DNA of 64,000 nt from an uncultured virus (IMG/VR IMGVR_UViG_3300037524_000956) (Duplodnaviria; Heunggongvirae; Uroviricota; Caudoviricetes). The notes below the pieces were generated by a model. That model made no database searches. It was not told where the DNA came from and worked only from the letters and a program-made list of their open reading frames with translations. Numbering within the stretch: the stretch's first letter is position 1; each line of letters opens with the position of its first letter. Below are positions 7,998 through 63,625 of the stretch, one piece after another. Location: the IMG/VR virus record IMGVR_UViG_3300037524_000956; one strand, written 5' to 3'. The position numbers and the translations under genes are program-made.

Positions 7998-8189
7998 ATG
8001 ATTAAGAACCCGAACGTATTTGTAACCTGCACTTCTGGCAATAACGCCTTTACTGATTGTTTAGTCCGTAAAGCCGGCGAAAACGTAGAGTTAGTTGGCT
8101 ATAGCCAAATGCAATTCACTAAAGCCGAAGCAAAATACTTAATTGAGTTAATCAAAAACACCATTGAGGAGATTGAGCAAAGTGAATAA
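7998..8189 (+). CDS. Hypothetical protein
   Basis: ORF in operon. Confidence 0.6.
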   Translation: MIKNPNVFVTCTSGNNAFTDCLVRKAGENVELVGYSQMQFTKAEAKYLIELIKNTIEEIEQSE

Positions 8190-9003
8190 AACTGATACAA
8201 TCTACACCTCCCTCCTCGAGCGAATTTCCCAATCCGGCGAGGAGGTTCAATCCCGAAACGGCCCCTCCCGCCGGCTGTTCACCCTCCCAACAGTAACCTT
8301 CGACGCAACACCCCTCGTAACTGTAAGACACACCGCATGGAAGAAAGCTATTCGTGAGATGGAGTGGTTTTTAAGTGGCAAACCTCGTTGCCCTTCCGAC
8401 CTTTTAGACTGGTGGGACGGGCAGCTAAATCCCAACGGACTTTACTTAAACGGATATGGTGAACAATTCCGGTCATTTAACTTCGACCAGATAAAGCACT
8501 TAATACACAACCTCCGCAATAACCCCTTCAGCCGTGAGCACGTAATTACTGCCTGGAACCCAGTAAAAATGGCGTTCATCAAAGAGGTAAACAACAACCC
8601 TCGAACGCCGGCGTGCTGTCATTCGACTGTAGTGCAATTTTTCGTGTCCAAAGACGGTGGGATTTCTATGCACTCTTACCAGCGGAGTGCGGACATGCTT
8701 TTAGGTGTTCCACACAACTGGATTCAGTCGTGGGCCTTTTTACTATGGGTTTGTACCCAAGCAGAGGGTGTCCCTGAGAAAATGTTATGGACTTTTGGAG
8801 ATGCACATACTTACATAGAACCTTCCCACACAGAGGCGATAAGGCAGATACTGAATTTTGGCTGTATGCCTGAAATTTCTTATCCCGCCCCGCCCCGGCT
8901 GATTTACAACGGGAGTGATAAAGATGCTTTTTTCGCAGAAGACTTCGAGATGATTGGAACTATCTCTCCACCGATAACTGCTGTTAAGCCGAAACTTTTA
9001 TAA
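8182..9003 (+). CDS. thyA: Thymidylate synthase ThyA
   Basis: EMEWFLSG, YGEQFR, SREHVITAWNP, catalytic PACCH, YQRSADMLLGVPHN, GDAHTY; start probably GTG 8182 (GAGGAG RBS). Confidence 0.92.
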   Translation: MNKTDTIYTSLLERISQSGEEVQSRNGPSRRLFTLPTVTFDATPLVTVRHTAWKKAIREMEWFLSGKPRCPSDLLDWWDGQLNPNGLYLNGYGEQFRSFNFDQIKHLIHNLRNNPFSREHVITAWNPVKMAFIKEVNNNPRTPACCHSTVVQFFVSKDGGISMHSYQRSADMLLGVPHNWIQSWAFLLWVCTQAEGVPEKMLWTFGDAHTYIEPSHTEAIRQILNFGCMPEISYPAPPRLIYNGSDKDAFFAEDFEMIGTISPPITAVKPKLL

Positions 9004-13748: not shown

Positions 13749-14828
13749 ATGCCAACTAAAATAGCCTTTGTGGGTGAAGCTTGGGGTGAGCAAGAAGCCA
13801 GGCTTCAATCTCCATTCGTCGGAGCCGCTGGCCAAGAGCTTGCTCGAATATTATTTCACGCCGGCTATCCGTGCCAGTTCCTACCTTACAACTTTAGCTC
13901 CGCAGTTAGAATGTTGAGCTACTGGAACAAGTTTCCCTACCCGCTATTAAGCGTGTTCAACGCTCGCCCGCCGGAAAACAACGTGGAGTTCTTTTACGCA
14001 AAGCCTAACACTTGCGAGGTGTCTTCTTTACTCCCTTCCCGGCGGATTGATAACGCTATTCACCACCTTAAGCTGGAATACGAATCGCACGTTATTCAGT
14101 TGCACGAAACGCTTAAGGAATTAAAGCCTAATGTGATTGTTACGTTAGGTAATACAGCATTATGGGCCTTGGGACTGCCTCCAAGTATTTCTAAATTAAG
14201 GGGAAACGTAGTTGATACACCCTTCGGGAAGGTGCTTCCTACCTTTCACCCGGCAAGTGTGCTTCGGAACTGGAGCCAGCGAATCGTGACCGTGCTGGAT
14301 TTACATAAAGCCCTTCGTGAAAGCGAATACCCTGAAGTAAGAACACTGTCTAGGGAGATATGGACACAACCCTCAATCGAAGACCTTTACAAGTGGTGGG
14401 AGCTGTACGGTTCGCAGGCGGAGCTACTTGCCTTTGATATTGAGACAATACGTAATAGTCAAATATCAGAAATATCTTTCGCCGCCGACTCAACTCATGC
14501 CCTGCACGTTCCTTTCTTTTGGAAAGAATCAGGGAAATTTGTAAACTGGTGGCCGGATGCAAAGACTGAATTTGAAGCATGGAGGTTTGTAAAGATTGTA
14601 CTTGAATCTGATGTGCCTAAGATCGGGCAGAATTGTATGCAGTATGATTCCTACTGGTTAGCTAAGGAAATGAAAATCGGGGTTAAGAACATAACTCATG
14701 ACACCATGCAGATGAGTCATGCGTGGGCGCTTGAGTTAGAAAAGTCTTTAGGATTCTTAGGGAGTATTTTCCTTGACGAACGGAGTTGGAAAGGGATTCG
14801 TAATGAGACAAGTAAACAAAACGATTAA
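13749..14828 (+). CDS. Family-4-like uracil-DNA glycosylase fused to the N-terminal part of a DEDD 3'-5' exonuclease
   Basis: GEAWGEQE, PFVGAAG, VTLGNTA, PTFHPASVLR; ExoI AFDIET, ExoII GQNCMQYD, HDTM. Confidence 0.85.
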   Translation: MPTKIAFVGEAWGEQEARLQSPFVGAAGQELARILFHAGYPCQFLPYNFSSAVRMLSYWNKFPYPLLSVFNARPPENNVEFFYAKPNTCEVSSLLPSRRIDNAIHHLKLEYESHVIQLHETLKELKPNVIVTLGNTALWALGLPPSISKLRGNVVDTPFGKVLPTFHPASVLRNWSQRIVTVLDLHKALRESEYPEVRTLSREIWTQPSIEDLYKWWELYGSQAELLAFDIETIRNSQISEISFAADSTHALHVPFFWKESGKFVNWWPDAKTEFEAWRFVKIVLESDVPKIGQNCMQYDSYWLAKEMKIGVKNITHDTMQMSHAWALELEKSLGFLGSIFLDERSWKGIRNETSKQND

Positions 14829-16909: not shown

Positions 16910-18166
16910 GTGGTCAGTAAAATCCCCCAAAGCGTCAGAACAGCAGATAACCTTCTGGCCTCTTGGGATGAATACGTTAAGCCCTTACACGCACACAGTA
17001 TATTTAAAAAATGGGGAGGGTTATCTCTCATATCCGCCGCATTAACCCGGCGGGTTTGGTTCCAGACTAACCCTGTTATGCCGTTATTATTTCCTAACTT
17101 GTTTATTCTTTTATGTGGGGCACCAGGATCTGGAAAAGATTTAGTTATCAATACCATCCGGGATTTATTATCTTCAGCTACCGAGGAAATGGAGCAGCAG
17201 CAAGGTGTTAACATCGCCCCGGAATCTTTATCAACCAAAGGTCTTATTGACGCTCTGGCAGATGATGAATCAAGACTTGCGTTTACATTCAAGCACGGAG
17301 GGAAACCAGAGACAGTCCACTGTCACTCATTATACGTTGTTAATGGGGAGTTGGGTGCGTTCATGCCTGAGTACCAGACTCAAATGATCTCCATCATTAA
17401 CGACTTATATAATTGTAAAAACTCTTTCACCGAGCGAGTTCGGGGGCGGGGTGCTTCATCCACTGTTAAGATCGAAAACCCCCATTTAGCTATGCTTTTA
17501 GGAACTCAGCCGGCGGTGTTTGCCCGGATTGTACCAGAGGAAGCTTTCCAAATGGGCTTCACTGCCAGGTTAATTATTTGCAATGCGGGTGAATTAACAC
17601 GCAAACCCTTCTTTAACAACGAGACAGTGGATCAAACACTAAAAGGAAAAATTATCTCAGACATTCGCGCCCTTTCATTATTGGCAGGGGAGTACAAACT
17701 TAGTACACGGTTTAAAGAAAAGTTAAACGCTTTCCACGTTGACAATCCCGGCGCGATTGAACACTCCCGATTCATAGACTACAACGTCCGGCGGTCGTTG
17801 CACCTCAGCAAAATCGCCATATGCTGTGCCGCCGCCGAGTCAAACGAACTTATGCTGGAGGAAAAACATTTCGATCAAGCGCTAGAATATTTGCTTTTGT
17901 CTGAGAAAAATGTTACGGCACTGTTTGATGACTTAATAACGTCAAACGGCTTTCACCACTCAATCGAACAGGTATTACACAGCAAGACCAAAGCAAATTG
18001 TACAATAACTCACGCTGAACTGGAGAGAAAATTGCGTAAGACCCATAAGCCCCACGAGGTAGGGCAGATAATCCGATCAATGATTCAAGCCGGAGATATA
18101 ACCTTTGCAGAATATAAAGGAAGTATCCCCATTTATAACGTGTTAATTGAGGACTTTAAGAAATGA
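16910..18166 (+). CDS. DUF3987/YfjI-like P-loop ATPase (putative replicative helicase or helicase loader)
   Basis: PNLFILLCGAPGSGKD, ELGAF, LGTQP, GFTARL; follows the polymerase. Confidence 0.65.
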   Translation: MVSKIPQSVRTADNLLASWDEYVKPLHAHSIFKKWGGLSLISAALTRRVWFQTNPVMPLLFPNLFILLCGAPGSGKDLVINTIRDLLSSATEEMEQQQGVNIAPESLSTKGLIDALADDESRLAFTFKHGGKPETVHCHSLYVVNGELGAFMPEYQTQMISIINDLYNCKNSFTERVRGRGASSTVKIENPHLAMLLGTQPAVFARIVPEEAFQMGFTARLIICNAGELTRKPFFNNETVDQTLKGKIISDIRALSLLAGEYKLSTRFKEKLNAFHVDNPGAIEHSRFIDYNVRRSLHLSKIAICCAAAESNELMLEEKHFDQALEYLLLSEKNVTALFDDLITSNGFHHSIEQVLHSKTKANCTITHAELERKLRKTHKPHEVGQIIRSMIQAGDITFAEYKGSIPIYNVLIEDFKK

Positions 18167-18759
18167 GTTTAATCACCCACACCGAGTTACAGTTGTTAAT
18201 TTCCGCCGGGCTTCTAGTCGCCCCTGCTGACAACGACCACCCTTACAATAAAATCGACAGCTCCCAAATCAACGGAGCTTCTGTAGACTTACGCTTGGGT
18301 AGGACGTTTCTTCGTGAAACTCCGCCAGGGTCAGTTACGTTTCGCCCTTCGTATTACGTTTGTCTAAAAGGGAAAGAGGGACTGGTGATGAGTAAGGAAA
18401 TTCTTCCGTGGGGGTATCCGTTTTATTTAGCACCAGGGGAGTTTATTCTAGCACAAACTCTGGAGGTATTTAATCTCCCTAACTACATCGCCGCCGAATT
18501 TCGACTTAAGTCCTCAGTGGCGCGGGCAGGTTTGGATCAAGCATTGGCTGTATGGTGTGATCCTTCATGGAACAATTCAGTTCTAACAGTAGAACTCAGA
18601 AACAACACCCGATACCATACGCTTGTTTTAGAACCCGGACAAAAAATCGGGCAAGCAGTTTTCTTTAAAGGCGAGCCTGTTCCAGATGCTGCGTCGTATG
18701 CAATAAGGGGGCAGTATAATAACTTAAGTGAAGTAACTGGGAATAAAGGAGTTAGATAA
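18163..18759 (+). CDS. dcd: dCTP deaminase (trimeric dUTPase superfamily)
   Basis: QINGASVDLRLG, PGEFILAQTLE, KSSVARAG, DPSWN, LTVEL, KIGQ, GQYN. Confidence 0.9.
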   Translation: MSLITHTELQLLISAGLLVAPADNDHPYNKIDSSQINGASVDLRLGRTFLRETPPGSVTFRPSYYVCLKGKEGLVMSKEILPWGYPFYLAPGEFILAQTLEVFNLPNYIAAEFRLKSSVARAGLDQALAVWCDPSWNNSVLTVELRNNTRYHTLVLEPGQKIGQAVFFKGEPVPDAASYAIRGQYNNLSEVTGNKGVR

Positions 18760-19007: not shown

Positions 19008-19236
19008 GCACGAACGCTATCTCGGTGACTCCGTCTACGCTTGTATAGACGGTGATGTACTTTGCTTATACACTAAAAACGATGATGATTCTGAGAACAC
19101 CATCTACCTAGAGCCAGAAGTTATAGACGCTTTAAACGCTTACGTTGATTGGATTAACAGCATAACCGACGAAGAGATTGACGAATATAACTCGGCTATT
19201 AGGCAGTTGAACGATGAAAAAGAATTGCAGTTTTAA
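19000..19236 (+). CDS. Hypothetical phage protein
   Basis: YLGDSVY...IYLEPEV; last gene of the + arm, stop overlaps the stop of the giant gene. Confidence 0.7.
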   Translation: MNRHERYLGDSVYACIDGDVLCLYTKNDDDSENTIYLEPEVIDALNAYVDWINSITDEEIDEYNSAIRQLNDEKELQF

Positions 19237-22200
19237 CTCACCCGTTGCTTATACGCAGCGTTAAATCTCTCTTGCACAGCCTCTATACGCCCGCGAAGCT
19301 CCTTAACGCGGGCGTCATCCTTTCTATTCTCAGCGGCTCGTATCCGCACCCGTAAGCTTTTAATCTGCCTTTCAACATCTTGCGCTTGACTATACATTCT
19401 TAAGTCTTTACTCCTCGCTTGCCGTACCTCCTGCAATTTAACTAGGTCTCTTTCCGGTCCATCTCTATACATCTTTTCTAACTTGTGTGCTCCGTAAACT
19501 GCAGCGATGTTTGTATGATAAGTCTGTGACCGCATAGGGTTGTATGGTTCTGAGAAGAATTCCTTAACAATCGGAATTTCCTTCGGACCCTCAATACCCT
19601 TCTCTAAATTTTCTTGCAGCCCAAATGTTGCATCCGAAAGAAACCTACCCAAGCTGCCAGTTAGGAACTTCGCTAGCAGTTGGTAATCTCCGGGACGGAG
19701 GTCAATCGCCCCGGATTCAACAGCACTTCCGCCGGTTAACTCATTAACAAACCTCGCAACGCTTTGATAACCCTTCGGTGTGCTGCTCCAGAGCAATTCT
19801 GAATTGGCTTTGCTTCCTGCACCGGGGAAGCCTTCTGGCCCTATTGGATTCCCGGCGAAGTCTTTGTTCTCAAGAATCTGCACAAACGGATCGGCAGCTG
19901 TGGGAGAAATAGCCTGTGCAATACTCCCCGGTTTACCCAAAGGATTAAACGTAACTGCAGTAAGCGCTGCAAGATCCAATATCATGTTCTGTGGCTTACG
20001 TACACCTGCAAGTGTCTCACCAAACATTCCGCCGGTGCGCCAGAGTACGTTATACACCCAGGGTGCAGGAATCTTAACAAAGTCACCAGCCACCTTAATC
20101 GGTAAGATAATAAACCGTTCCTTATCCCACTCAGGTATTTCATCCCAATCATCAGCTACCGCTCGGCCAAGTAAGTCAAGCATTAAGGCGAACATAATAG
20201 TTCCACCTGCCCAGGCTTGTAATTTCTTAGACGCCATTAAGTTCCTTAAAACTTGATAATTCCCCTGCACCGCCGCGTTAAAGAACACCCACCAATTACC
20301 AAGCGCCTGTGTCTTATACCCCCGCCGGGTGAAGTTAGTTGTTAAGTCTTGAGCAATTCGCGCTGCCCGAGTCTTATCAACCCCCTTATCCATCAATACA
20401 TTAAAGGTACTCAACCGCATTACGTTCTCAAACAGCACGTTAAAGTTCTCAAGCCCATCAATCCATTTATCCTTGGCAGCCATTATTTGCTTCATGCCCC
20501 CTTGCCGCCGGGCGACCTGCGCATCAAAGCTCCTCCATGTATCATCAGACGGATTCAACTGCTCAATAAACGAGGTCCGGCCTCCAGCATTTTCAAATGC
20601 CTCAACCATTTTTACGTCTGCATCAGTCGGGTTTCGATTGCCATCGAGAAATACCTTTTTCAAAGCATTAAAAGATTTACCATAATTCGCAAATATTTCA
20701 CTCGTGTACGGTGCTGCTTCAGTCGCTTGCAAATTGTAAAGTGCAGTCCCCGGATCTCTAATCGCGTTCATCATCAGGAACGCCGGTGAGGCGGTAACAT
20801 TAACCCACCTTACGATGTTGTTAAAGAAATTAAGTACACTCATCGGCCCGCTAACAATCTGCGCGTCTAAGTTATTAGCTGCACGTACAAAGCCCATTGC
20901 TCTTTCATTGTGCATGTTAGGCCGGATGACTAATTTCTTTCCTTTATTAATCAGTGTAATGTCTGCACGGTTCGAGGCCGTAGCATTTCTTTCCTGCAAG
21001 AATCCATCCTCATCATGCGTTATGTACTTATCAGCATCAACAATAGCAAACCAGGGTTTCCAACTCTCTTTATCAGCATTAACTACCTCATACAATTCTT
21101 TATTCGCCAGATTCCTCTCCGCTGCTGCTGCGCTTGCTTCAAGTGCTGCGAGTGCGTTTTGTAGTACAAGTGTTGGCTCGGAAAGTGCAGTGGTTCCTGT
21201 ACGAACTCCGAGTTGCTTAGACCCACCTTGACCGGCGCGCTGGAAGAGTTGTTCAATTTCTCTATCAACATTATAAGACTCCCGGCGTAAAGGTGCGTAT
21301 GTAGTTTTATCAAGTAACAATCTGGCATGTTCTTCTGGAGTGATTAACTCCCCATCCTCACGGATTTGCAGCGCGTGTCGATTCATCGCATCGAATAAGT
21401 TAGCGATTTTATCAAACCGTGCTTGATCTTTACTCGTATCCGCAAGTACGTCGTCGATACTTCTTACAATCCCCTTACCAATTCCACCGTTAGAGAATCC
21501 CCCGGCGGCGTCCTTAAACACCTCCCACTCAAACCTCAACGCCTGCTTTCCGTCAGGGTTAAGTTGTTCAAACACAACATACTTATTCATCAAATCAAAC
21601 ATAAGCTTTTGCTTAGTTTTTTTTGACATTTTAGCCGGGGTACCGTTTATATCTAAGTAAACAGACCCGTCTGGCATTTTTCCGCCTTTAACATTCGAGC
21701 GGGCCTTCATTAACTCCTTTTTCTTTGACTCAGGCAACGCCTTTAAAAGCTCCTTAGTATAACTGTAACTCGACCTTTCGGCAAGCCGGGTGTTTACGTT
21801 ATCCACCTTAAGGTGTCGGGCAGCAAGCATGTCTCCGACTTCTTTTGAAGTCCACGGACCTTTAGCGATAAGATCCCGTAAAGGAAACATGTACTCCTGC
21901 CGGGCTTGCACTAGCCGGGCGGCCTTTTTATTTCTTAAAAGTGAATACGCATCGTAAACCCTTGTAGACTTCTTTTCCATTTCTGCGAAGAAGTCTATGA
22001 AATTTGCACGGAACTTTTGCAACAACCCTGGCTTGTTTACAAAGTCCTGCCGGGAATCTGTTGGGTCTGTCCAAAGGGTGTCTTTAAACTCTTGGAGGCC
22101 TATGCTGTAAAGGATATTAGAATCAGTAGATGAAAACAACCCTATGTTGGCTATGGCAGATTTAATTTGATTTGGATCATATACAACATACTCATCCGAG

Positions 22201-25200
22201 GCTTGTTTTGCTTTTCTTCCAAACAGTTCAACATTCTGAAATTCAGCCGGCAACTGTGGAGGTTTTACTATAACCCCATCATATCCAGATTGTTTCAAGT
22301 TTTCTCGAATATCTGGATCCGTAAAATCAACTTGTGCTTTAGCAGCTGGATTTTGCATATTAAGAAAAACTGGAATAACATTACCGCCGGAGTAATTTTT
22401 AGTATATACGCTAGCTAATTTTGGGTCAGATGTAAAATAAAAACCTTTACCATAAACACCGGAGTCAGTCCCTGTCCCAACTTTACCCAAATCAAACTCT
22501 GAAAAGTCAGATTGTGTGCCATGATAAACTACTAAGGGTTCACCATTGTCATCTAAAATTTTACTAGAGTTACCTTGATCGTTTTCCCAGTTACCAAACC
22601 AAGCCTTAAACTCAGGTGTTCTTACCTGCAGCCACTGCCGCTCGTTCAAATTGGTTGATTGCCCATTAGGCGCTTTCATCCATTGATCCGAGTTTTCATA
22701 TTGCTTACGAACTTTATCAATAGACTCTTCTGGGGTATCTTGTAGCGTAGTCTCTGGTGCAACACTATACTGCGCCTCAAGCGCCCGCCCTAATCTCACA
22801 CTCGGCGGCATCTCCTTCGCTTCAGCAATAACCAATTCCCTTGCCCTCGCGGCTTGTTGTGCCTCAGCCAAGCTGTTTCTCAAGCTCGCCTTCGCCCATT
22901 CAACAGCCATTGCCTCGTTTAACTCAAACCCAATCCCGGCTTGTTTAAGCGCTTGCCCAAGTTGCGTTTGTGCAAACCAAGCTTTAATTGCGTTTATTAA
23001 TCTCTTTAAAAATCCCGCCCCGTCTTTAGTTTCCGCAGCGTACTGAATAAAATACGCCAGCTTTTCTTCCGCTAATAGCCCTGGCCGGCGTTCCTCAATT
23101 AATGCCTGCACGTTTTTAAGGTCCGTCTTATTCCCACCCTGCATGAGATTATGCTTAATCCCAAGCACATCAGCCACAGCGATAGTTGCTTGCGCGATGG
23201 CGTTCCTGGCTGTTTCATTACCATTCTCAGCAAGGGTATCGAGGTCCTTTAAATATCCTTCCAGACTATCCCCAAGTATTTCGTTAAACGTAGGGGCATG
23301 GCTACCTTCATGCAACAGCACACCTAAAGGTGAACCGTCCGCCGGCATGGTTTGAGTGTATAATCTAAACTTGTCTCCCGCCCACGAGCCTGACTCGCCG
23401 CGTGTGCCAGCTCCGTCAATGACTTCGATAATCCCGGCGGCCTCCGCTTGCTGTATCCAGTTCTCACCCATTACAGAATTTACGTTAGCACGTAATTCGT
23501 CTGGAGTAACCGGACGAATTGGGGACCCTTGCTCAGCACTTAACGACTGTCCCCCTTGCATAACAACAATTTGCTCTTCGTCGGGGTATTCCTGCATGGA
23601 CTGCGGAGAGCGTTCCTTCCGTTCTTCCTCAGTCATGCCTTGCCGGGCTTGGGTTAGGCGAGCTTCGGTTTCGCCGGCGAGCTTTTTGTAAAACTCGTAA
23701 AGATTTGCTTCCGCACGAATAGCCTTTTCATTACCGGATCTTATCGCAGCGATTTTCTCGAGGATATCGGTGATCTCTACGTTAAGTTTAAATTTGTATT
23801 TTGTGATTTCTTTTTTTGAGTCATCCTTCTTTATGAAATCTATAAATTTACTTAAAACTGAAAAAGTTTTAAAAGGAAGACTACCTAACCCACGATCACT
23901 ACCCAATAAACCTGCAATAACTTTTTCCACATGACCCACATCATTCATCGCTTCCCTCCATACTTTTAATTTTTCTTGGCGGGTTTTATTTTCACGAGGA
24001 AGATTCTCATAAACCATGTATTCAGCATACGCCTTATCACGAATACTAATTGCGTTATCATAATCTATAATAAAATCAATATTTTTCTCTAAAAAAACAG
24101 CGGTTTCGATAGCTTCTTTTAATTGATAAATTTGTTCATTCAGTTTTTCCATCACCCCTTTAGCAACATTCTCTTTCGTTTCTACAGGCAGCGATTCCCA
24201 AACCGAATTCTCATTACCACCCTTAGCAAATCCCTCATACATTTGAATAGCATGTTGAATCTCATGGAGTATAGTTGACAGTGGATCTTTTGCGTAAGGG
24301 GTAACAACAATCTCCAGTTTATCGTCGCTAAAATACCCTTGAGTTCTTTGGTCAATATCAAAAAGTGCTTTTCTTTTTATTAACTTAATTGCTTCCAAAA
24401 AGGGATAAGCTGCAAACAACTTAGGATGATCAATAACTTCGCTTAACGGAATTGCTTTTTCATCTTTAAAAAATTCTGATTCAGGAATAGAATCAAACGA
24501 TTGTTTCCACTTCATATCCTTATCAGAGATTTCAAATCTCCATTTCTTATCAGCTCCTTGATGCCAGCCGGTTTGTTGACGCACAACTTCAGGATTGTCT
24601 CCTTTTTCTATACGATTTTGTGCAGTCTCTAAAGACATTAAATCAGCAGTAGCAGCTCGTGGCCCGGCGAAGCTAAATAACGGTTGCCCCTGCATCACCG
24701 ACTCTTTCATCGCCAGGGTTATGTCTACGCTGTGGACAGCGGTAGACTGTTTATCACCTACTTTTATTTGTGTAGTTCCAACCTCTGCTCCCCACTTCTT
24801 AACGTATTTGTTAATCTCCTTCGGTAACTGGCGATCATAAAGGTTTATTAAATAATCACGTCCTGCTTGCTCGTATCTTTCTGCCTGCTGTTTTCCAGTC
24901 GTCCATCCAACCCTATCATAACCATTTTCCGCCGCGTAACGTAGCATACGTTTAAAGCCTAACCCTGCCCAACCTGACAGAGTGCTTGAAGACCCAGAGA
25001 TGGTTTGCTGAAAAGGTGCAATAGGTACTTTCCCATTGGCATATTTATTTAGACTTTTTACTGCTTTTTCAATAGCTTGTTCTTTTGTATCTCCTGCAGC
25101 AATAAGAGCACCATCTTCCTTTTCTCGAACAAACCACTCAGTTTCTCCTTCAAAGGTTTCAGGTGCTATCGTAAAATTTTTATCATCTAATAATTTTTGT

Positions 25201-28200
25201 GCAGTCCACTCTTTAATATATCCTTGTTTACTTCCCTCTTGGTGGCGTTTACTTTGTATCTCTTCAATAAACAACAACTTCTTTCCATCTTCGTCAGTAC
25301 GGTCATTAAACCTTATCCACGCTATTGCACGACCTTCTTTAATGTCGCCGTAATGTATCTTATCTTCAGTGTTATATGGCTGAATATTAGGACTTGTTAT
25401 AACTATCTCCCGGTGATTTTTTCCACCAGCTAGTGTCCATTTTTTATTTCTAGTCTTATCTATATATTGAGTATTTAAAAAATCAAGTGGTTTTAAAACA
25501 GTTTCTATTTCATCACCAAATCTTTTTGCTTCCTTATCCGAGCTATCTTTTATATTATCTACTGTTCCAATTAACTTTCCAGACAGATCATATACTTCCC
25601 ATTTATTAGTTTCATCATTTAATGTAATCTTTGGCTCACCTGCGCCCAACAATGTTTCAGTTACTTTAACTTCATTATCCTTAACAAATTTCAAAACATC
25701 TTCTTTACTCACAACACCTTGTTCTTTCAACCACTCATCAACTCCCATCCAGTCAAGTTCTTCTTTTTTAATCTGCCCCTTACTAACCATGTTATTCAAC
25801 ATAGAAGCCCATTGTGTACCAGAAGCTTTTTTCTGTGATAACCCCTCAACAGCACGAGAAAGTCCGGAGTAAAATCTCCCTTTCGGCATCGAGTACCTAA
25901 AATCCTCCGAGTCTGTAGGCTTCTCATTCGTAACAAACTTCACCTGTTTACTATCAAACGCAATAACATAAGGCTTAGCTCCCGGTGCTTTCACAATCGC
26001 CCCGTCATAGCCTTTAGCCATAAGCTTTTTACGGAGCTTGGCTGCATCTTCTTTAGTCTCAATACTCGTTAAGTCAGCGTCGGTTAATTCGTAAGGATTT
26101 TGAATCTTAGCATGTAACGCCATAAGGTTGTTGCCATATCTTGCAGCCGCCCCCTTATCAGCGGTCATGAAGAATCCTAACCCGCTGGTCGGGTGGGAGC
26201 TGGCTTCGCCGGCGCGACTCGAATCCCACTCATTAAACACCGGGTTGTTAGTACCGTGGTATAAAGTAATGGGTGTCCCGGCGGAGTCTGCCGTTACGCC
26301 GGGAGTCCCTTTACCGAACCAGTTTTTAAATGGGGTTTCCTGCGCTTGGCGCTCTTGAAACTGCTTCCGAACAGCCTCAAATTCCTCCATTGTGGCTTCG
26401 GTGGCTTGCCGGCGGGGCTTAGACTTTTTAATTTGTTTAGGATCGAATACTACAATTTCTAAAGGTTCTCCATTATAATTAGCAGTAATACTATCATATC
26501 CTGCCTGTTTAGCCATATCAGATAATTTAGTAGGTGCATCGTTTACTTCAAGTGGACCTACTGCTTCTTTATACACATCCATAAAGGTTAAAAGTAATTC
26601 ACCACCCATTCCTGTTGTCTTAAACTCATTTAATTTAGCCTTAGCTATATTTTTTTGTTCTATAGATAATTCTGGATTATTATCAAATACTGATCCTAAC
26701 GCATTAAAGTTTACATCTGCTGCAGCTAAAAATTCTTCATCACTTGCCTCATTACCTTCGTATGCTGCAAAGTCTTCAGTAATAAGTGGATTATTTAGTT
26801 CAAGAGATGCACTAATTACATTCTTACCATAGCTTGAAGCTGTCTCTTTATCGGGTGTAAAATAAAAACCTGCTCCATTTAATCCTGTATTTCCAGAATT
26901 CTTACCTGACTCTTTAGCATCAAATTCAGCGAATGTATCATCAGGCGTTCCATGATAAGCTTTAATAGTATATTTTGTTCCTTTTCGGCGAGGCATTGAG
27001 AACCGGGTGTTTACCGGGGCTTCGGTTTGGGTTTGCACTTCTTCGGCATTTGGAATTACCTCTGGTTTAGTTGGACGTTCTCCCAACAACTGCTGCAGCT
27101 TAGCTTTTTCTTCCTCAGTAGGAATAACTCTTGTTTCAGGTTGACCCGGCGGGGTAAGTATAACCTCTTCCCCACGCTTTAACTGAACAGTCTCGCCGGG
27201 CCGAGGTAGGACTGGGGGCTGCGTAACGGGAGGTATATTAGGACTTACAACTGGTACTTGCTCCTCGACTGGCGGAATATCCAGCGGAGTTTCCTGCACC
27301 GGCGGGGTTATCTCTTGAGTCGGAGGTATAGTTTGGATAACGGGAGGAATTTCAACAGGAGCTTCTTGCACAGGAGCCACTTGTCCCGGTGTTTCTTGAA
27401 CAGGCGTTTCCACACCCAACTCACTATCAAACCGCGCCCTTATCTGTTGCAGTTCTTCCACCCCCGCCGTATTCCCGGCGGCCTGTGCTTCTGCCAAAGC
27501 CGCATCTATCCTACTCCGCATAGCCTCAAGGTCTTGCGTTCTGGTTTGATCAGTTGGTGGTGTTACAGGCAGAGTTCCAGTTTGTGCAGGCGGAGTCCCG
27601 GCAGGAGGTGGAGCAGTTTCTTGTGCTTGTAGCCCGCCAACAGTAGCCCCTGCACCCATCGCAGCTCCACCGACCAGCGCACCAGCCGCCGCTGCGTTCT
27701 TAATCCGTCCCCAATCTTCAGGAGTTAAATCAGCAAACAGCGGCTCATTCTCCGCCCACCGGAGGCCGGCGATAGAGACAAGCTCTTGCAACCCTTCTGT
27801 AATACCCTCCGCCCCGGCACCAACGGCTGCACCTTTAGCGGCTCGGCCACCAATTTCCTTAGCCAAGCCAATGGCACGTTTTGAAAGTTCAGGGTTATCT
27901 GCAATAACTTTGGCAATACTCTTTTTAGCATACGACCCCATCCCAATGCTCTTCGCCGCCGAGTAAAACGGCAAGAACTCCAGCGCCCCGTTAATACCAC
28001 CCACTGCAATAGCGCTTTTAACAGCGTCAGCCGGGTTTACCCCTTCAGCAACTTGTTCACCAAACGCAAGTCCACCTTCCAGCCCAAAGCTCCCTGTAAA
28101 TCCGCCGGCGATAGCGCCCTTAGAAAACGTATCCCTTAAGGCGGTAGCTGCAGCCTGTTTCATAGCCTGCGTTACAACTTGTCCCTCAGCCGCTTGTATA

Positions 28201-28700
28201 GCCTTAGTAGCAACAGTCTTTTTAACTAGGTCTCCAACAGCACTCTTTGCAAGTGCTTTAACTCCTTGATTTGCACCAATCCGAGCAACTGCCCCACCAA
28301 TACCACCGCTTAACGCCAATGTACCAAGCATCGGAATACCTTTACCTAATTGGTATCCAGCCCAGTCCATAGCGTCTGAAGCGTTTTTAATATCTTCCAC
28401 CCTCGCAATGCTCGGTGCATTTAATCCACTTTGACTTTCTTGTATAGCCTTATTATACCCTTCAATACCCCAATCTGTAAGCCCGCTGGTTACAGCATTT
28501 TCCCCAATAAGATTCTCTACCCCTTGCGCACCTAAGCCCACAAGTCCATAGCCTGTTGCCTGCATCTCTTTCCCGAAGGCACCCAATCCCCTCCGCCACT
28601 CAGGGAGTTTATTATCAATCTCCACTGGAGTGTTTAACGCACGAAGATCACGGGTTTTCCAGATTTGCTCATACGGGTTAATGATGTTAGACGCAGCCAT
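19233..28700 (-). CDS. Giant polyvalent protein, probably virion-ejected: Gly/Ala-rich N-terminus, three ART-like domains, LPD23-like domain, two zincin motifs, LPD38-like C-terminus
   Basis: 3155-aa ORF; three YHGT...G(F)(Y/F)(F/M)T units; TGWHQGADKKWRFEISD; HEIQH and HEGSH; C-terminal DEIPEWDKERFIILP...QILENKDFAGNPI. Confidence 0.85.
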   Translation of the reverse strand: MAASNIINPYEQIWKTRDLRALNTPVEIDNKLPEWRRGLGAFGKEMQATGYGLVGLGAQGVENLIGENAVTSGLTDWGIEGYNKAIQESQSGLNAPSIARVEDIKNASDAMDWAGYQLGKGIPMLGTLALSGGIGGAVARIGANQGVKALAKSAVGDLVKKTVATKAIQAAEGQVVTQAMKQAAATALRDTFSKGAIAGGFTGSFGLEGGLAFGEQVAEGVNPADAVKSAIAVGGINGALEFLPFYSAAKSIGMGSYAKKSIAKVIADNPELSKRAIGLAKEIGGRAAKGAAVGAGAEGITEGLQELVSIAGLRWAENEPLFADLTPEDWGRIKNAAAAGALVGGAAMGAGATVGGLQAQETAPPPAGTPPAQTGTLPVTPPTDQTRTQDLEAMRSRIDAALAEAQAAGNTAGVEELQQIRARFDSELGVETPVQETPGQVAPVQEAPVEIPPVIQTIPPTQEITPPVQETPLDIPPVEEQVPVVSPNIPPVTQPPVLPRPGETVQLKRGEEVILTPPGQPETRVIPTEEEKAKLQQLLGERPTKPEVIPNAEEVQTQTEAPVNTRFSMPRRKGTKYTIKAYHGTPDDTFAEFDAKESGKNSGNTGLNGAGFYFTPDKETASSYGKNVISASLELNNPLITEDFAAYEGNEASDEEFLAAADVNFNALGSVFDNNPELSIEQKNIAKAKLNEFKTTGMGGELLLTFMDVYKEAVGPLEVNDAPTKLSDMAKQAGYDSITANYNGEPLEIVVFDPKQIKKSKPRRQATEATMEEFEAVRKQFQERQAQETPFKNWFGKGTPGVTADSAGTPITLYHGTNNPVFNEWDSSRAGEASSHPTSGLGFFMTADKGAAARYGNNLMALHAKIQNPYELTDADLTSIETKEDAAKLRKKLMAKGYDGAIVKAPGAKPYVIAFDSKQVKFVTNEKPTDSEDFRYSMPKGRFYSGLSRAVEGLSQKKASGTQWASMLNNMVSKGQIKKEELDWMGVDEWLKEQGVVSKEDVLKFVKDNEVKVTETLLGAGEPKITLNDETNKWEVYDLSGKLIGTVDNIKDSSDKEAKRFGDEIETVLKPLDFLNTQYIDKTRNKKWTLAGGKNHREIVITSPNIQPYNTEDKIHYGDIKEGRAIAWIRFNDRTDEDGKKLLFIEEIQSKRHQEGSKQGYIKEWTAQKLLDDKNFTIAPETFEGETEWFVREKEDGALIAAGDTKEQAIEKAVKSLNKYANGKVPIAPFQQTISGSSSTLSGWAGLGFKRMLRYAAENGYDRVGWTTGKQQAERYEQAGRDYLINLYDRQLPKEINKYVKKWGAEVGTTQIKVGDKQSTAVHSVDITLAMKESVMQGQPLFSFAGPRAATADLMSLETAQNRIEKGDNPEVVRQQTGWHQGADKKWRFEISDKDMKWKQSFDSIPESEFFKDEKAIPLSEVIDHPKLFAAYPFLEAIKLIKRKALFDIDQRTQGYFSDDKLEIVVTPYAKDPLSTILHEIQHAIQMYEGFAKGGNENSVWESLPVETKENVAKGVMEKLNEQIYQLKEAIETAVFLEKNIDFIIDYDNAISIRDKAYAEYMVYENLPRENKTRQEKLKVWREAMNDVGHVEKVIAGLLGSDRGLGSLPFKTFSVLSKFIDFIKKDDSKKEITKYKFKLNVEITDILEKIAAIRSGNEKAIRAEANLYEFYKKLAGETEARLTQARQGMTEEERKERSPQSMQEYPDEEQIVVMQGGQSLSAEQGSPIRPVTPDELRANVNSVMGENWIQQAEAAGIIEVIDGAGTRGESGSWAGDKFRLYTQTMPADGSPLGVLLHEGSHAPTFNEILGDSLEGYLKDLDTLAENGNETARNAIAQATIAVADVLGIKHNLMQGGNKTDLKNVQALIEERRPGLLAEEKLAYFIQYAAETKDGAGFLKRLINAIKAWFAQTQLGQALKQAGIGFELNEAMAVEWAKASLRNSLAEAQQAARARELVIAEAKEMPPSVRLGRALEAQYSVAPETTLQDTPEESIDKVRKQYENSDQWMKAPNGQSTNLNERQWLQVRTPEFKAWFGNWENDQGNSSKILDDNGEPLVVYHGTQSDFSEFDLGKVGTGTDSGVYGKGFYFTSDPKLASVYTKNYSGGNVIPVFLNMQNPAAKAQVDFTDPDIRENLKQSGYDGVIVKPPQLPAEFQNVELFGRKAKQASDEYVVYDPNQIKSAIANIGLFSSTDSNILYSIGLQEFKDTLWTDPTDSRQDFVNKPGLLQKFRANFIDFFAEMEKKSTRVYDAYSLLRNKKAARLVQARQEYMFPLRDLIAKGPWTSKEVGDMLAARHLKVDNVNTRLAERSSYSYTKELLKALPESKKKELMKARSNVKGGKMPDGSVYLDINGTPAKMSKKTKQKLMFDLMNKYVVFEQLNPDGKQALRFEWEVFKDAAGGFSNGGIGKGIVRSIDDVLADTSKDQARFDKIANLFDAMNRHALQIREDGELITPEEHARLLLDKTTYAPLRRESYNVDREIEQLFQRAGQGGSKQLGVRTGTTALSEPTLVLQNALAALEASAAAAERNLANKELYEVVNADKESWKPWFAIVDADKYITHDEDGFLQERNATASNRADITLINKGKKLVIRPNMHNERAMGFVRAANNLDAQIVSGPMSVLNFFNNIVRWVNVTASPAFLMMNAIRDPGTALYNLQATEAAPYTSEIFANYGKSFNALKKVFLDGNRNPTDADVKMVEAFENAGGRTSFIEQLNPSDDTWRSFDAQVARRQGGMKQIMAAKDKWIDGLENFNVLFENVMRLSTFNVLMDKGVDKTRAARIAQDLTTNFTRRGYKTQALGNWWVFFNAAVQGNYQVLRNLMASKKLQAWAGGTIMFALMLDLLGRAVADDWDEIPEWDKERFIILPIKVAGDFVKIPAPWVYNVLWRTGGMFGETLAGVRKPQNMILDLAALTAVTFNPLGKPGSIAQAISPTAADPFVQILENKDFAGNPIGPEGFPGAGSKANSELLWSSTPKGYQSVARFVNELTGGSAVESGAIDLRPGDYQLLAKFLTGSLGRFLSDATFGLQENLEKGIEGPKEIPIVKEFFSEPYNPMRSQTYHTNIAAVYGAHKLEKMYRDGPERDLVKLQEVRQARSKDLRMYSQAQDVERQIKSLRVRIRAAENRKDDARVKELRGRIEAVQERFNAAYKQRVS

Positions 28701-58529: not shown

Positions 58530-58726
58530 TTTGTATTTTCCGTTAATTGTTGTATCAGGGTTTTTAACTCTGCGTAGTGGCCCCGGAGAGCCTCTGTAGT
58601 TGCGTGGTCAGTACCTGGTACAGCAATACGTTCTATGACGAGATTAGCACGTTCTACTAAAAATTGCAAAAAACGCATAGGGTCAATATACCAAGTACCA
58701 TACACTTGCACTAACGCATCTTTCAT
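58526..58726 (-). CDS. Hypothetical head-region protein
   Basis: TEALRG motif, ATGA overlaps. Confidence 0.65.
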   Translation of the reverse strand: MKDALVQVYGTWYIDPMRFLQFLVERANLVIERIAVPGTDHATTEALRGHYAELKTLIQQLTENTK

Positions 58727-60840
58727 TGTAACCCCAATGTGTTAAGCGCTGCTGCAACATCTATCTCAGGTGTCTCAGCCTTCGCCGGGGTAAGTGGTTT
58801 CGCGCCGGGAAGTTCTTCGGCACGTTTTTGCTCAACGTCCATGTCCTTTTGGGCTATCGCTGTATCCGATTTAATTTGTGCCTCAGCTTGCGCTTGCTGT
58901 AGCGACAGCCGTTTAAACTGCGCCTCGAGTGCCAATTTAAGCGTATCAACCTCTTTCCTAAGATCCGCTTTATACACTTCAGTTTGAGCTTCAATTTGTG
59001 CCGCCGTCACCTTTGGATCAGGTTGTTGCTCCGCCGCCTCCAGCCGTTGCCGTTCCTCATCAGTAAGCGCCAGGGATTCAATATCAATTTGGAACCCCTC
59101 AAGGTAAACCTGCATCCACTTCCGGGGCGAAATCCCATAAACTGGCTGAAGAACCTGTTGGGCAATTTGCAACAGGGCTTGCTGCTGTAACTCCTTCACG
59201 ATAAGTGTTGTAGAGCCTAAAGGCTCTACCACCGCATCTCCTTGCGCCTCCTCCGGTCCGTATAACTGTACCCACTCGTAAAAGTTTTCCAGCAACGGTT
59301 TACAAGTTTTATCATCCCATTCCTTAACAATAAGCCGAAGATTTGTCGTGGAATTGTTCATTAACTGCTGTGACACTCCAACAGCGTCAGTAACAGCTTG
59401 TCCCTGCAATAGCAAGCTTAACCCGGTGGTGTCCTCTGCCATTTTTAACCAGTATTGAATAACTGGCATAATATCGTTTAAGTAATTAGGAAACTCTAAA
59501 AACGCCATTGCATTTTTAGCTTCCGTCATCGCGTCGATTCCTGGCAAGCCGGATTTCACCCGCCACCGCTTGTATGGCCGAAGTTTGGTGTCCTCACCGT
59601 CAATGGGTTCTATAAGGCCGTCCATTTCCAGCACCTGTGGTCCGACAGAATACCCCATATTATCCATCAAGGCACGAACAGACGCAGTAAGCCCTCGTTG
59701 TGGAGTCTCCATTTGCTCTGGGATTCCGATTCCCGCCCAAGAGTTATCTCTTGGCTCCCAGCAAACCAGATGATACGGGAACTTTTCAGTTTCCAGCGGA
59801 AACGGGGCGATTTTAATAATCCGATCATTAAGCATCGTTATTACGCCAAAACCCAGCGAACGCTCCTCGTTTTTATCCTTCCACTCAATCACCCCGGTTC
59901 TGACCCAAAGGGCGTAAGGCTTTTTGGAGTCTTTTCTTTTAGCCATATTATCATCTTGCGGCCCCTCATCCAACGCCAGTTTAATAGCATCGGCGAAGTA
60001 ATTGGGGTCTTTCGCCATGTCCTGCAACTGCCGCTTTGTTACCTCAGGTATTTTCTCAAAGAAGAACTTACCATTTTGAATATCAGTACCACAATCCGGG
60101 TCAGGGTAACAGTTTTCCACCTTAATACACTCAATTTGCGGAGTGTAAAATAGCATAGTTTCTAGTTCTTTTAAAAGCATTTCCGCCGTGAATTCATCCG
60201 TACTAGCTGGGATGAACTCCAGGATTTTTGTAGTGTCACTACTTAGCCGGCGTTCCTTCGGAAACGGGCCTTTAATCACCCCAGTGCCAACTATCCCCGA
60301 TTCTACCAACTGCCGCCTTACTACGCCGGCCCACCCAGACTCCTTAAGCCAATCTTTAATAATCGTCTCAGCGACTTGTATCGCGGCAGCGGCAGAATTC
60401 TCATCCTGTATCTTGCGAGCAATGTCTGGCAGAAAAACAGGAATTTGCTGCATAATATTTGGGTATTTTGCAAGAATCCCGAAAACCGTTTGCAAGTCAC
60501 TTACAGGTGTGGCTTTTAACGCCCAGGGCATCTTTCCCGTAGGAAGCAAAATATCTGCAACCCGAGCTGTGCCAGCGTTTGTATAAGGGCGAGTGATGTT
60601 GACCAGGACGGTAGAGCGGTCGTTTTCGAGTCTTTCACGGAGGGGAGTTACTGAGGAATTTAATGTCTCACCCTTTTCATACTCGGTTGTTGTTCGGTTA
60701 AGAGCATCGACACCCTTGTATTGGTTCCGGGCGGACTGCCAAATACGGTCAAGCTCCTTTCTCCCGGAAATGGCTCGCTTGCGCTCGTCGCAAAGGGTTG
60801 CAACTAAGCACTCAAGACTTTCGTTCTCAGGCAATTCCAT
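58723..60840 (-). CDS. Portal protein (P22/podovirus-like)
   Basis: GTGVIKGP, CYPDP, GIGIPE, AEDTTG, Gln-rich C-terminal coil; start moved to MELPEN. Confidence 0.82.
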   Translation of the reverse strand: MELPENESLECLVATLCDERKRAISGRKELDRIWQSARNQYKGVDALNRTTTEYEKGETLNSSVTPLRERLENDRSTVLVNITRPYTNAGTARVADILLPTGKMPWALKATPVSDLQTVFGILAKYPNIMQQIPVFLPDIARKIQDENSAAAAIQVAETIIKDWLKESGWAGVVRRQLVESGIVGTGVIKGPFPKERRLSSDTTKILEFIPASTDEFTAEMLLKELETMLFYTPQIECIKVENCYPDPDCGTDIQNGKFFFEKIPEVTKRQLQDMAKDPNYFADAIKLALDEGPQDDNMAKRKDSKKPYALWVRTGVIEWKDKNEERSLGFGVITMLNDRIIKIAPFPLETEKFPYHLVCWEPRDNSWAGIGIPEQMETPQRGLTASVRALMDNMGYSVGPQVLEMDGLIEPIDGEDTKLRPYKRWRVKSGLPGIDAMTEAKNAMAFLEFPNYLNDIMPVIQYWLKMAEDTTGLSLLLQGQAVTDAVGVSQQLMNNSTTNLRLIVKEWDDKTCKPLLENFYEWVQLYGPEEAQGDAVVEPLGSTTLIVKELQQQALLQIAQQVLQPVYGISPRKWMQVYLEGFQIDIESLALTDEERQRLEAAEQQPDPKVTAAQIEAQTEVYKADLRKEVDTLKLALEAQFKRLSLQQAQAEAQIKSDTAIAQKDMDVEQKRAEELPGAKPLTPAKAETPEIDVAAALNTLGLQ

Positions 60841-60978
60841 AAAACCCCCTAATAAACTCCACAAAAAATCGAATAAGTTTTCCCGATAACAAAAGTATCG
60901 CGGTGCCTATATAAACTAAAGCAACAAGCATAAACCAGTCAGCTATTACTTTATTACGACCTGTTAATCTATAACGAA

Positions 60979-61197
60979 TCATGCAGCCTCCCACATTGGC
61001 TCAATCGCTTCCGGGGTAGGTCCGATCTTGGTTATTTCCTCCTTCGCCGGCGGAGGGGTTAATTCTTTAAGCATTTCAGGCTCAAGTAACGCATATAACC
61101 TTTTAACTTCTTTCGCAAGTGTAAAGCAAATGTTTTCACCATTGCAATTTATCGGGGCACATGTTTCTGCTCTCTGTAAGGCTTCTTTAATGTTCAT
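60979..61197 (-). CDS. Hypothetical protein
   Basis: ATGA-coupled to the dfrB-like gene. Confidence 0.55.
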
Positions 61198-61421
61198 TCA
61201 ATTCTCTTTAAGGCTGTCGCCGGGTAAATTTGTACAGAACCAGTTTCAGAAGAACTCTCAACAGCGTATCCTTCGGGGGTTAAATTTGTAGAGTACCAGC
61301 CGACTATTTTACCCTGCCAGCAGGAACCCTTAATCTTTTTAACAACATCTCCGTATTTAAAAGTTGGGTGACTAATAGTAGGCCAGGGAAATAAACAGTA
61401 AGTTACTGAAAAGTCATTCAT
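61194..61421 (-). CDS. dfrB: Type B (R67-like) dihydrofolate reductase homolog
   Basis: [33 protein letters not shown]...GSVQIYP matches the R67/DfrB core, including the VQIY motif. Confidence 0.9.
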
Positions 61422-61422
61422 T

Positions 61423-63036
61423 TTAATATCCCATTACCGCGTCTAAGGGTCGCCAACCAGCCTTTGTACTCTTAAATTCCATCCCAGTATTTACTCCTTT
61501 TATCGGCCTCGCCCGCGTGGGTACAAACGTAAGCACAAACGCATCCCAGTGATCAGGGCTTCGCGAGGCGTTTTTCTGCGACCGAGTACGGCCTAAAGCG
61601 AATCTCGCCCGGTAATCGTCTTTGGACTCAATTAATAAAAGCCCACCTTTGTACTCGAATTGAATTGCGGTAGCTTGTGCTACAAACGTAGGGTTGTCCG
61701 GGAGGGAAATTTCCAAATCTTCAATATAATCCACCGCCTGCGAGTGCAAGTACGCCCGCAAGTTATAATTCTTCCCATCTGAAAGTTTCGCCCCGGTATG
61801 CACAGCCAACGTGATAGAGCTAAATGGGCCGTATTTTAACTGATCAGCGGCGGAGCCACCAGGCCCGTCCCGCTCAATCGCAATGAGTTCCACTGGGCCG
61901 GTGTTTAATAGCTTTTTAACCTTGTACTCGATAATCGTAGCAAGTTGAACTCCGTCGAGTTTCCTATACGTTTCAGGTTCGATAGACAACCGACCCCGCC
62001 TCGCCCAAATTACAATCTCATCATTACCCATTCCGGCGGCGTCTACCCCGATCCGCCAGGGAGTCGTGTCAGGTTGCTCGATAGACCCTGGCCGGCGGGA
62101 GATTGCTGCCTGGATTTTGTTGTGATCTACTAAAGTGTTTGAAACAGACGCCGCATAATTCCGATCTACCTGGGAGGCCAGCGTAGTGGGTAACAACTCA
62201 AGCTTTTGCTTTTTATACCAGGGTTCTTCCTCAGGCTCAAGATCAAGGTTTTGCCGTTTTCTTGGATCCTCTTTCCAGTCGAATATAAAAATTTGTTCTT
62301 TAGGCAAAAACTGTCGCAGTATATAAAACAGGTTCCCAATCCCATTCACCGTTGAGATATAAATCCGGCAGTTTGTCGTAGCCGATAGGGAAGACTCCGC
62401 CATATCTGGATGTTCTAAATGCGCGAACTCATCCACAAAGTATAAACCCGCCCGGCCACCACGCCCAATCTCATCACCGATTTCACCCTTAATCACCGAG
62501 TTGTTTAACAAATTCGGAACGGTTCCCCACTTCCGCCCCGCAGTGTGTTCAGAGTGGAGGAACTCCGCCGGAAGGTTGTCGATAAAGGCTCGTACTTTCC
62601 AAAAGATAGAATCCGGGTCGTGCTCGCCGTTATCTACAAGCTCTTTCTTACGGCTTCCAAACCCAACGACTGAGGAAGGATAAAACAGCCAAACGCAAAC
62701 TGCACACGCAGCGCATAACCAGGTAAAGCCTACGTCACGAGATTTTTCCCCAAGTCCCCGACGGGAGTTAATGTAAGAATCGTATACCCAATTAACGAAT
62801 TCCACTTGTCTTGGGAAGAGAATAAACGGAAAGTACTTGTCTTTCGGCTCACGAGGATCAAAAGTCATTCCCCAGTCGTTTATGAAATCCGCCCAGTGGG
62901 TTGAATAATAGTCCATTAATTTACTTAACGCGGCGGGATTCTTTCTCAGCCGGGAAAGAGCATCCAATCGGAACTCAAAGACACTTTTGTAATCCGGATT
63001 TACCCAGTTGAATTTGGACGGATCAAACTCATTCAT
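61423..63036 (-). CDS. terL: Terminase large subunit
   Basis: [46 protein letters not shown]. Confidence 0.92.
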
Positions 63037-63625
63037 CTTCCCATCCCTCTGTTATGATGGTTAAAGCCCGCCGGGTGGGGGGTTGTTGCACAGGCTTTTT
63101 AATCACCGTCGGCTCCTGCTCTTCCCCAGGGATATACCCTCGCCGCTTTAACAACCTTACGTATGTTTCGATTGGATCTTCGTTGTCAAACTCAGCATCG
63201 GAGCGAGCTGCACCGTGTACGTTCGTTTGTAATAGGATTTCCTTTCGATCATTGAAGAACTGTACCGCCGGCGCACCTACAGGCTCGTCAGGGTCGAAAT
63301 CGGGGATGTTCTTAAGCATGAAAATCGGCCCGGTGGCATTGCCATATCCAATTAACTCCTCATACCCGGAGGCAATAGCAATCATACACCTGCTTATCAC
63401 GTAACGAAGTTCAGGAATACGCTGGCCGAGCCGCAAAAGTGACGTGGGGCCGGGGAGGCCGACGGAGAGTGCATACCCGGTTACTGTCGGTCGGTTGCCC
63501 GTGTCAGCGCACTCGTTGAAGTATATGTTGGAGCGGGCGATAAAATCCTCCACCCCCGCCGGAGGACTTACGGTGGCCGGATTGCGCTTCCATTCGGGGA
63601 CGAAGGTGGCGGGGGCGGAAGACAT
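63029..63625 (-). CDS. Terminase small subunit
   Basis: YF.EC...PTVTGYALSVG...IFMLKN pattern, directly upstream of terL. Confidence 0.7.
   Translation of the reverse strand: MSSAPATFVPEWKRNPATVSPPAGVEDFIARSNIYFNECADTGNRPTVTGYALSVGLPGPTSLLRLGQRIPELRYVISRCMIAIASGYEELIGYGNATGPIFMLKNIPDFDPDEPVGAPAVQFFNDRKEILLQTNVHGAARSDAEFDNEDPIETYVRLLKRRGYIPGEEQEPTVIKKPVQQPPTRRALTIITEGWEDE

Follow-up and report, generated by a model that had tools for sequence, protein, structure and literature searches.

Dihydrofolate reductases (DHFRs) of the DfrB type reduce dihydrofolate as homotetramers by proximity catalysis. In R67 (DfrB1), the tunnel is built from four SH3-like protomers and has V66-Q67-I68-Y69 as its lining, and K32 anchors NADPH and dihydrofolate. 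When thymidylate synthase ThyA acts, methylene-tetrahydrofolate is oxidised to dihydrofolate, and a DHFR is needed to recycle this product. The frd-td pair of phage T4 is a case of a FolA-type DHFR gene beside thyA.

Phages are known to carry DfrB as well. A river virome study of 2020 (PMC7265639) lists DfrB-like phage genes, and in 2023 two such homologues from phages were cloned (PMC9835603); the latter source reports that DfrB-H4, from a Vibrio phage, confers trimethoprim resistance on E. coli up to 600 ug/ml. The passages cited here from Lemay-St-Denis et al. (Mol Biol Evol 2025, PMC12486381) describe 20 viral homologues, 10 of them in cluster I, the cluster to which the VQIY motif is restricted, with ThyA in 3 of those 10, and set out the pattern of ThyA without FolA for viral DfrB. 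A sequence-only reading of the DNA analysed here pointed out the present gene. In view of these reports, phage-borne DfrB is no new idea, and the gene is one more example of an already published phage DfrB.

The gene lies in a stretch of 64,000 nucleotides from an uncultured wetland virus, which we call the window. It resembles the viral cluster-I genes of PMC12486381 in having VQIY and K32, in belonging to a tailed phage without FolA, and in having ThyA within 20 kb, counted on the phage circle. It differs from them, as they appear in the passages cited, in its slot between the terminase (terL) and portal genes, in its uncultured lineage, and in lying on the strand opposite thyA. With the phage FolA-type genes (dfrA, frd) found beside thyA it shares a proposed job, the recycling of dihydrofolate from phage ThyA, but the DfrB fold is unrelated, and dfrA is far commoner (1953 dfrA against 8 dfrB candidates in lytic phages; PMC12466917).

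The gene and the genome that carries it

The window is from a tailed phage. Its minus strand carries genes for terL, portal, an N4-gp56-type capsid protein, adaptors and endolysin, and its plus strand those for a helicase, a nuclease, ThyA, a methylase, a UDG-like protein, Pol A and dCTP deaminase. The features that bear on dfrB are as follows.

8164..9003, plus strand: ThyA-type thymidylate synthase (PF00303, 133 bits)
18163..18759, plus strand: dCTP deaminase-like gene (PF22769, 90 bits; TIGR02274, 82.6 bits, under the 92.8 cut-off)
58723..60864, minus strand: portal protein, SU10 type (PF23899, PHROG 1216 and 332)
60979..61197, minus strand: 72-aa accessory ORF whose start overlaps the stop of dfrB, also found in the closest relatives without dfrB
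61194..61421, minus strand: DfrB/R67-type dihydrofolate reductase homologue, 75 aa, 228 nt, cluster I (VQIY), Glu at 62
61423..63036, minus strand: terminase large subunit, 537 aa (PHROG 2, E 6.6e-20)
63029..63625, minus strand: 198-aa gene directly before terL in relatives, a small terminase by position (synteny) only, with no Pfam or PHROG match

The 75-aa ORF is almost certainly a DfrB/R67 homologue. It matches Pfam PF06442 (DHFR_2) with 92.8 bits (E 1.2e-26; curated cut-off 25) and aligns to PDB 1vie over residues 17-74 without a gap (E 5.7e-22). Its 58-residue core is 67% identical to DfrB1. On the 1vie alignment, in which we take the 62-residue chain to begin at R67 residue 17, K32, W38, W45 and V66-Q67-I68-Y69 are retained, the last as V63-Q64-I65-Y66 of the ORF, while H62 is changed to Glu and K33 to Ile. 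The profile and 1vie matches bear out the DfrB domain seen in the sequence-only reading, as well as its list of kept residues and its Glu at 62. The residues named as key to DfrB in the cited part of PMC9774602 are K32, W38, W45 and VQIY, with H62 not among them. Every column that is invariant across 96 ungapped cores is kept in the phage protein, which is very probably catalytically competent.

The ungapped SH3-like core with K32, W38, W45 and VQIY is shared with R67 and clinical DfrB2-B10 (PDB 1vie, 2rk1). Unlike these, the phage protein has H62E, K33I and a different N-terminus, and it scores 96.4 bits against NCBIfam NF000331 (trim_DfrB, the clinical or numbered alleles), under the cut-off of 137. 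Among the 40 of 98 plasmid records listed, identity to DfrB1, B2, B3, B4, B6 and B10 is 63-68%, and the weakest rows are rhizobial homologues at 52-63%. The gene is a member of the DfrB-homologue family and not a numbered clinical allele. Nor does it have the attC site, integron or plasmid of the clinical cassettes: the attC core pair was absent from 60500-62200 on both strands in a scan that was positive behind dfrB in 4/5 bacterial control loci, and no tyrosine integrase (PF00589) was found in either record that closes the genome. The first impression that there is no attC or integrase here, and that the gene is resident in the phage rather than carried as an integron cassette, holds.

The ATG of dfrB lies 1 nt past the terL stop, as first noted, with both genes on the minus strand, and the dfrB stop overlaps the start of the 72-aa ORF (ATGA). 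A plus-strand reading of 61194-61421 was rejected, with stops throughout the frame. The GC content of dfrB is 0.40 and its GC3 0.34, against 0.48 and 0.51 for terL, and nearby small ORFs are similar to dfrB. Between 60500 and 64000, 3 promoter-like sites were found against 4.6 expected, none of them before dfrB, and no minus-strand terminator between terL and portal. Repeats around dfrB are short, chance-level pairs, with no att-like duplication, and Rfam gave 0 matches within the window.

Two IMG/VR records, G001 (54,209 bases) and G071 (12,651 bases), match the window at about 100%. They overlap by 127 bases at a join outside the window, and the same overlap inside the window is consistent with their lengths; the genome closes to a circle of about 66.6 kb, and 64 kb of this lies in the window. 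DfrB is missing from G001, which stops short of the gene. Across the circle join, thyA and dfrB are about 13.3 kb apart on opposite strands. FolA (PF00186) and ThyX (PF02511) were found in neither record, and the control matches for these profiles appeared in 10/14 and 5/14 genomes. The catalytic-Cys, YQRSAD, Asn and DxH motifs of the phage ThyA line up with solved ThyA. Among GenBank cultured phages, the closest terL is about 40% identical.

Some other features of the genome are recorded here. G001 has 84 extra bases relative to the window at 104/105. A 3155-aa polyvalent protein (19233-28700, minus) has three ART-PolyVal ADP-ribosyltransferase-like stretches, LPD23 and LPD38, and is probably an ejected virion protein. 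In a 503-aa protein (11116-12627, plus), an N6/N4 DNA methylase domain is fused to a ParB-like one. A family-4 UDG-like gene with a C-terminal extension (13749-14828, plus) stands directly before the 601-aa Pol A (15033-16838, plus), possibly a split polymerase arrangement.

The dfrB stretch recurs without a single difference on a 1117-base contig from a second wetland run, and a 733-base contig from a soil run, about 92-95% alike, spans the terL end, dfrB and the 72-aa ORF. This contiguity shows that the stretch is no assembly artefact. In the soil strain (5-8% divergent), both changes within dfrB among the differences listed are synonymous, as are 11 of the 14 listed for the 72-aa ORF. Two wetland metatranscriptomes contain contigs of 151-186 bases, at a depth of 2-2.5, identical to parts of dfrB, but DNA carry-over is possible and we do not count them as expression.

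The slot between terL and portal

Of 24 other terL loci taken, 21 show both terL and portal, and dfrB lies between the two in 0/21. Three of these have terL 92-93% identical to that of the window, yet no dfrB in the slot: L082 and L083 have an unrelated 66-72-aa ORF and then the same 72-aa ORF, and in L097 the slot is empty before that ORF. The slot ORF of L083 starts 1 nt past the terL stop, exactly as dfrB does in the window phage. A stand-alone TSCPD-domain gene (PF12637) fills the slot in L090 (3603-4187), L091 (4294-4878) and L100 (4078-4695), so that genes of nucleotide metabolism have entered this slot on more than one occasion; the TSCPD domain resembles the C-terminal part of a class II ribonucleotide reductase. 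Other relatives have assorted other small genes here. The slot is a variable accessory site, and synteny shows that dfrB arrived in it by a gene-for-gene swap. The position in the packaging operon, to which meaning had been attached at first, is incidental. Among the 79 other viral dfrB loci, none has a terL of this type beside dfrB, and the GenBank phage copies have methylases, polymerases and helicases as neighbours. A search of the open-access literature found nothing on dfrB adjoining terL. As a separate observation, the slot of L098 (7618-8268) holds a 216-aa ORF that by eye resembles a phage DNA-cytosine methyltransferase and has no Pfam match.

A sister phage (G007; terL 82%, ThyA 64%) has DfrB elsewhere, 745 nt behind the orthologous thyA and co-oriented with it. 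In a weak tree, its DfrB falls in a fork (SH-aLRT 99%) that leaves the window gene out. This hints that the lineage may have acquired DfrB twice at different places, on a tree that is weak and has a long window branch. A complete relative, G012, has ThyA and neither DfrB nor FolA, showing that dfrB is dispensable in the lineage. The canonical ThyA of G012 (L120, 1866-3077) is only 29% identical to that of the window and lies at a different place, after Pol A, and G013 is without ThyA, a pattern that makes ThyA itself mobile in the lineage. None of the 7 records with a close ThyA, most of them fragments, carries DfrB.

Glutamate at position 62 and the viral family

IMG/VR contains relatives of the gene in 186 stretches, of which the best 80 were analysed. 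In DfrB1, His-62 lies at the dimer-dimer interface, which is a trait of that enzyme rather than of the family at large. Among the 64 distinct viral ORFs from these 80, 38 have Glu and 26 have His at this residue. A core set was made from the viral loci, 80 bacterial loci and five GenBank phages, and 114 of its 117 distinct cores were used, with 3 dropped as mis-cut. Residue 62 is His in 66 and Glu in 47 of these, one or the other in 113/114. Glu-62 is found in 34/57 viral cores against 13/57 bacterial cores, counts that the ranking of relatives by likeness to a Glu-62 query may inflate. The ungapped Glu-62 cores, whose rows are related, have K or R at 63 in 25/37, K at 34 in 17/37 and few acids at 37, and the likewise related ungapped His-62 cores have E or D at 37 in 23/59. 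The median dN/dS of viral Glu-62 cores is 0.041 (129 non-independent pairs), and the window core compared with 41 others gives pN 0.19 and pS 0.82; by these measures, Glu-62 cores are under strong purifying selection.

The protein of Vibrio phage 1.030.O (AUR82941.1) has Glu-62, and 34/51 of its core residues are identical to those of the window DfrB. From its host, length range and distance to a methylase, AUR82941.1 is probably DfrB-H4 (PMC9835603), in which case the phage-borne enzyme that confers resistance shares Glu-62 with the window protein. The candidate differs in being a 218-aa multi-domain protein, in lying 1.9 kb from a DNA methylase gene and in coming from a phage without ThyA. 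In the passages cited from PMC12486381, 114/123 homologues predicted to be tetramers are active, and the interface residues are not conserved. Because Glu-62 is common and constrained by purifying selection, the Vibrio phage protein fits DfrB-H4, and the interface varies among active homologues, H62E is unlikely to block function. The earlier worry that H62E is a defect does not stand against these data; Glu-62 is a normal state of the DfrB family. We found nothing on H62E in the open-access literature.

A quick tree of the 114 cores (52 columns) leaves 76/111 inner branches open and is used as a hint only. The end branch of the window DfrB is 0.55. An all-bacterial fork of 27 rows, mostly Burkholderiales (SH-aLRT 82), takes in the bacterial copies with attC-like cores. 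The cited part of PMC11662351 places the origin of clinical-type dfrB in Burkholderiales chromosomes and does not mention phage there. The sequence-only reading had also suggested that phages are a reservoir of DfrB. The many phage homologues agree with this, as already published, but a phage reservoir of clinical dfrB is unsupported, since clinical-type alleles group with the Burkholderiales chromosomal copies.

Two forms of viral DfrB stand out. Mosaic proteins of 120-490 aa, similar to that of Pseudomonas phage PS-1, have the DfrB domain (His-62) at the end, several of them in proviruses without ThyA (L027, L032, L044, L048-L050, L054, L059, L063, L065, L068, L072-L074, L076-L080). A group of stand-alone Glu-62 DfrBs of 60-70 aa occurs on contigs of 20-117 kb with CheckV completeness of 6-34% (L016-L021, L028-L031, L033, L034, L036, L038, L040, L043, L045-L047, L051-L053, L055); such low completeness at this length makes these probably jumbo phages. 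In L008 (5419-6063) and L010 (4111-4791), DfrB is followed by a C-terminal domain that by eye resembles a MazG-type NTP pyrophosphohydrolase, with no Pfam match there; a DfrB-MazG-type fusion is reported in PMC12486381.

Proposed folate recycling and the alternatives

We propose that the gene encodes a working R67/DfrB-type DHFR that was swapped into a variable slot and serves the phage ThyA as an accessory enzyme of folate recycling (probability about 0.6). The phage would make dTMP with its own dCTP deaminase, acting earlier in the route, and ThyA, and the latter would be the likely source of dihydrofolate. With 67% identity to DfrB1, the phage protein should form a similar tunnel of four protomers with the K32 anchor. 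As a compact accessory, the 228-nt dfrB would supplement the tetrahydrofolate supply of the infected cell, having taken over the start position coupled to the terL stop ahead of the 72-aa ORF. It would be helpful rather than essential, because the host FolA can do the job; it would have no part in packaging, and trimethoprim insensitivity would be a by-product. Folate recycling as the main role of the gene is probable: ThyA is present while FolA and ThyX are absent from both records that close the genome, and the sister phage has its dfrB close behind thyA. Opposed to this are the place of dfrB in a late, oppositely oriented head operon far from thyA, and the occurrence of ThyA without DfrB or FolA in G012 and without DfrB in the other records with a close ThyA.

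A general link of DfrB to ThyA is opposed by the wider survey. ThyA, ThyX and FolA were searched for in the longer contigs, 44 of the 79 other viral dfrB records, and in 6 related records. A ThyA-family match was found in 5/44, two of them weak and partial, and in 2/5 of the DfrB phages checked among 26 GenBank records with a match. ThyA was found in none of the 14 DfrB-bearing virus records with a completeness of 90% or more, and ThyX and FolA in none of the 50 records. Because roughly half of these 14 belong to a single family of long PS-1-like fusions, they are not independent.

These counts speak for a competent DfrB tetramer kept for some job apart from ThyA, such as dinucleotide or folate binding or partner oligomerisation in host manipulation or counter-defence, with dihydrofolate reduction as a side activity. 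Many viral copies are fused to unrelated domains, the slot in relatives takes assorted accessory genes, and another primary function is proposed in the cited part of PMC12486381. However, the window phage does have ThyA without FolA, a second member of its lineage has DfrB beside thyA, about half of the near-complete records come from one fusion family, and faster turnover of host folate would aid a phage even without its own ThyA. We regard such a job as possible, with the odds clearly against it. In a narrower version, which we consider rather improbable, the Glu-62 DfrBs form a sub-family, enriched in phages, whose dimer-dimer interface has been rewired (Glu-62 accompanied by a basic side chain at 34 or 63, with the acid at 37 lost) and is probably insensitive to pH. 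Phages would keep them mainly for some task other than serving ThyA, for example to bind dinucleotides or folates during host takeover or counter-defence.

It is quite unlikely that dfrB is a neutral passenger, recently swapped in, poorly expressed or inactive (for example through H62E or K33I) and on its way to being lost. Its absence from the slot in all 21 related loci, its GC below that of core genes, its long end branch and the weak RNA evidence would suit a passenger, but the ORF is intact, translationally coupled at both ends and complete in its invariant columns, it is retained in the divergent soil strain with only synonymous changes among those listed, and Glu-62 is both common and under purifying selection. 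A DNA-packaging or head-assembly role, as an SH3-like accessory of terminase or portal, is very improbable, since, against the coupled position between terL and portal, dfrB is absent from the same slot in all 21 related loci, and other phage copies keep different company. Selection by antibiotics, or a direct source pool of clinical dfrB cassettes, is the least credible of all, as the likeness to the named alleles and a predicted insensitivity to trimethoprim are set against a gene without attC or integrase, a score below the clinical cut-off, an all-bacterial, mostly Burkholderiales fork for the copies with attC-like cores, and clinical-type copies that trace to Burkholderiales.

The view of where clinical trimethoprim resistance arose is unchanged by this gene. 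That most complete DfrB-carrying phages are without ThyA is a count that specialists may want to follow. Were the Glu-62 sub-family real, it would explain the 14/14 near-complete records without thymidylate synthase and the insertion in an accessory slot, and it would give a lead on what the DfrB fold originally did. If the folate-recycling DfrB proposed here is active, it would add a stand-alone, compact enzyme from a phage whose closed genome has ThyA but lacks FolA, and its lineage, with seemingly two pickups of DfrB at different places, would be a small natural test of the published folate-recycling idea.
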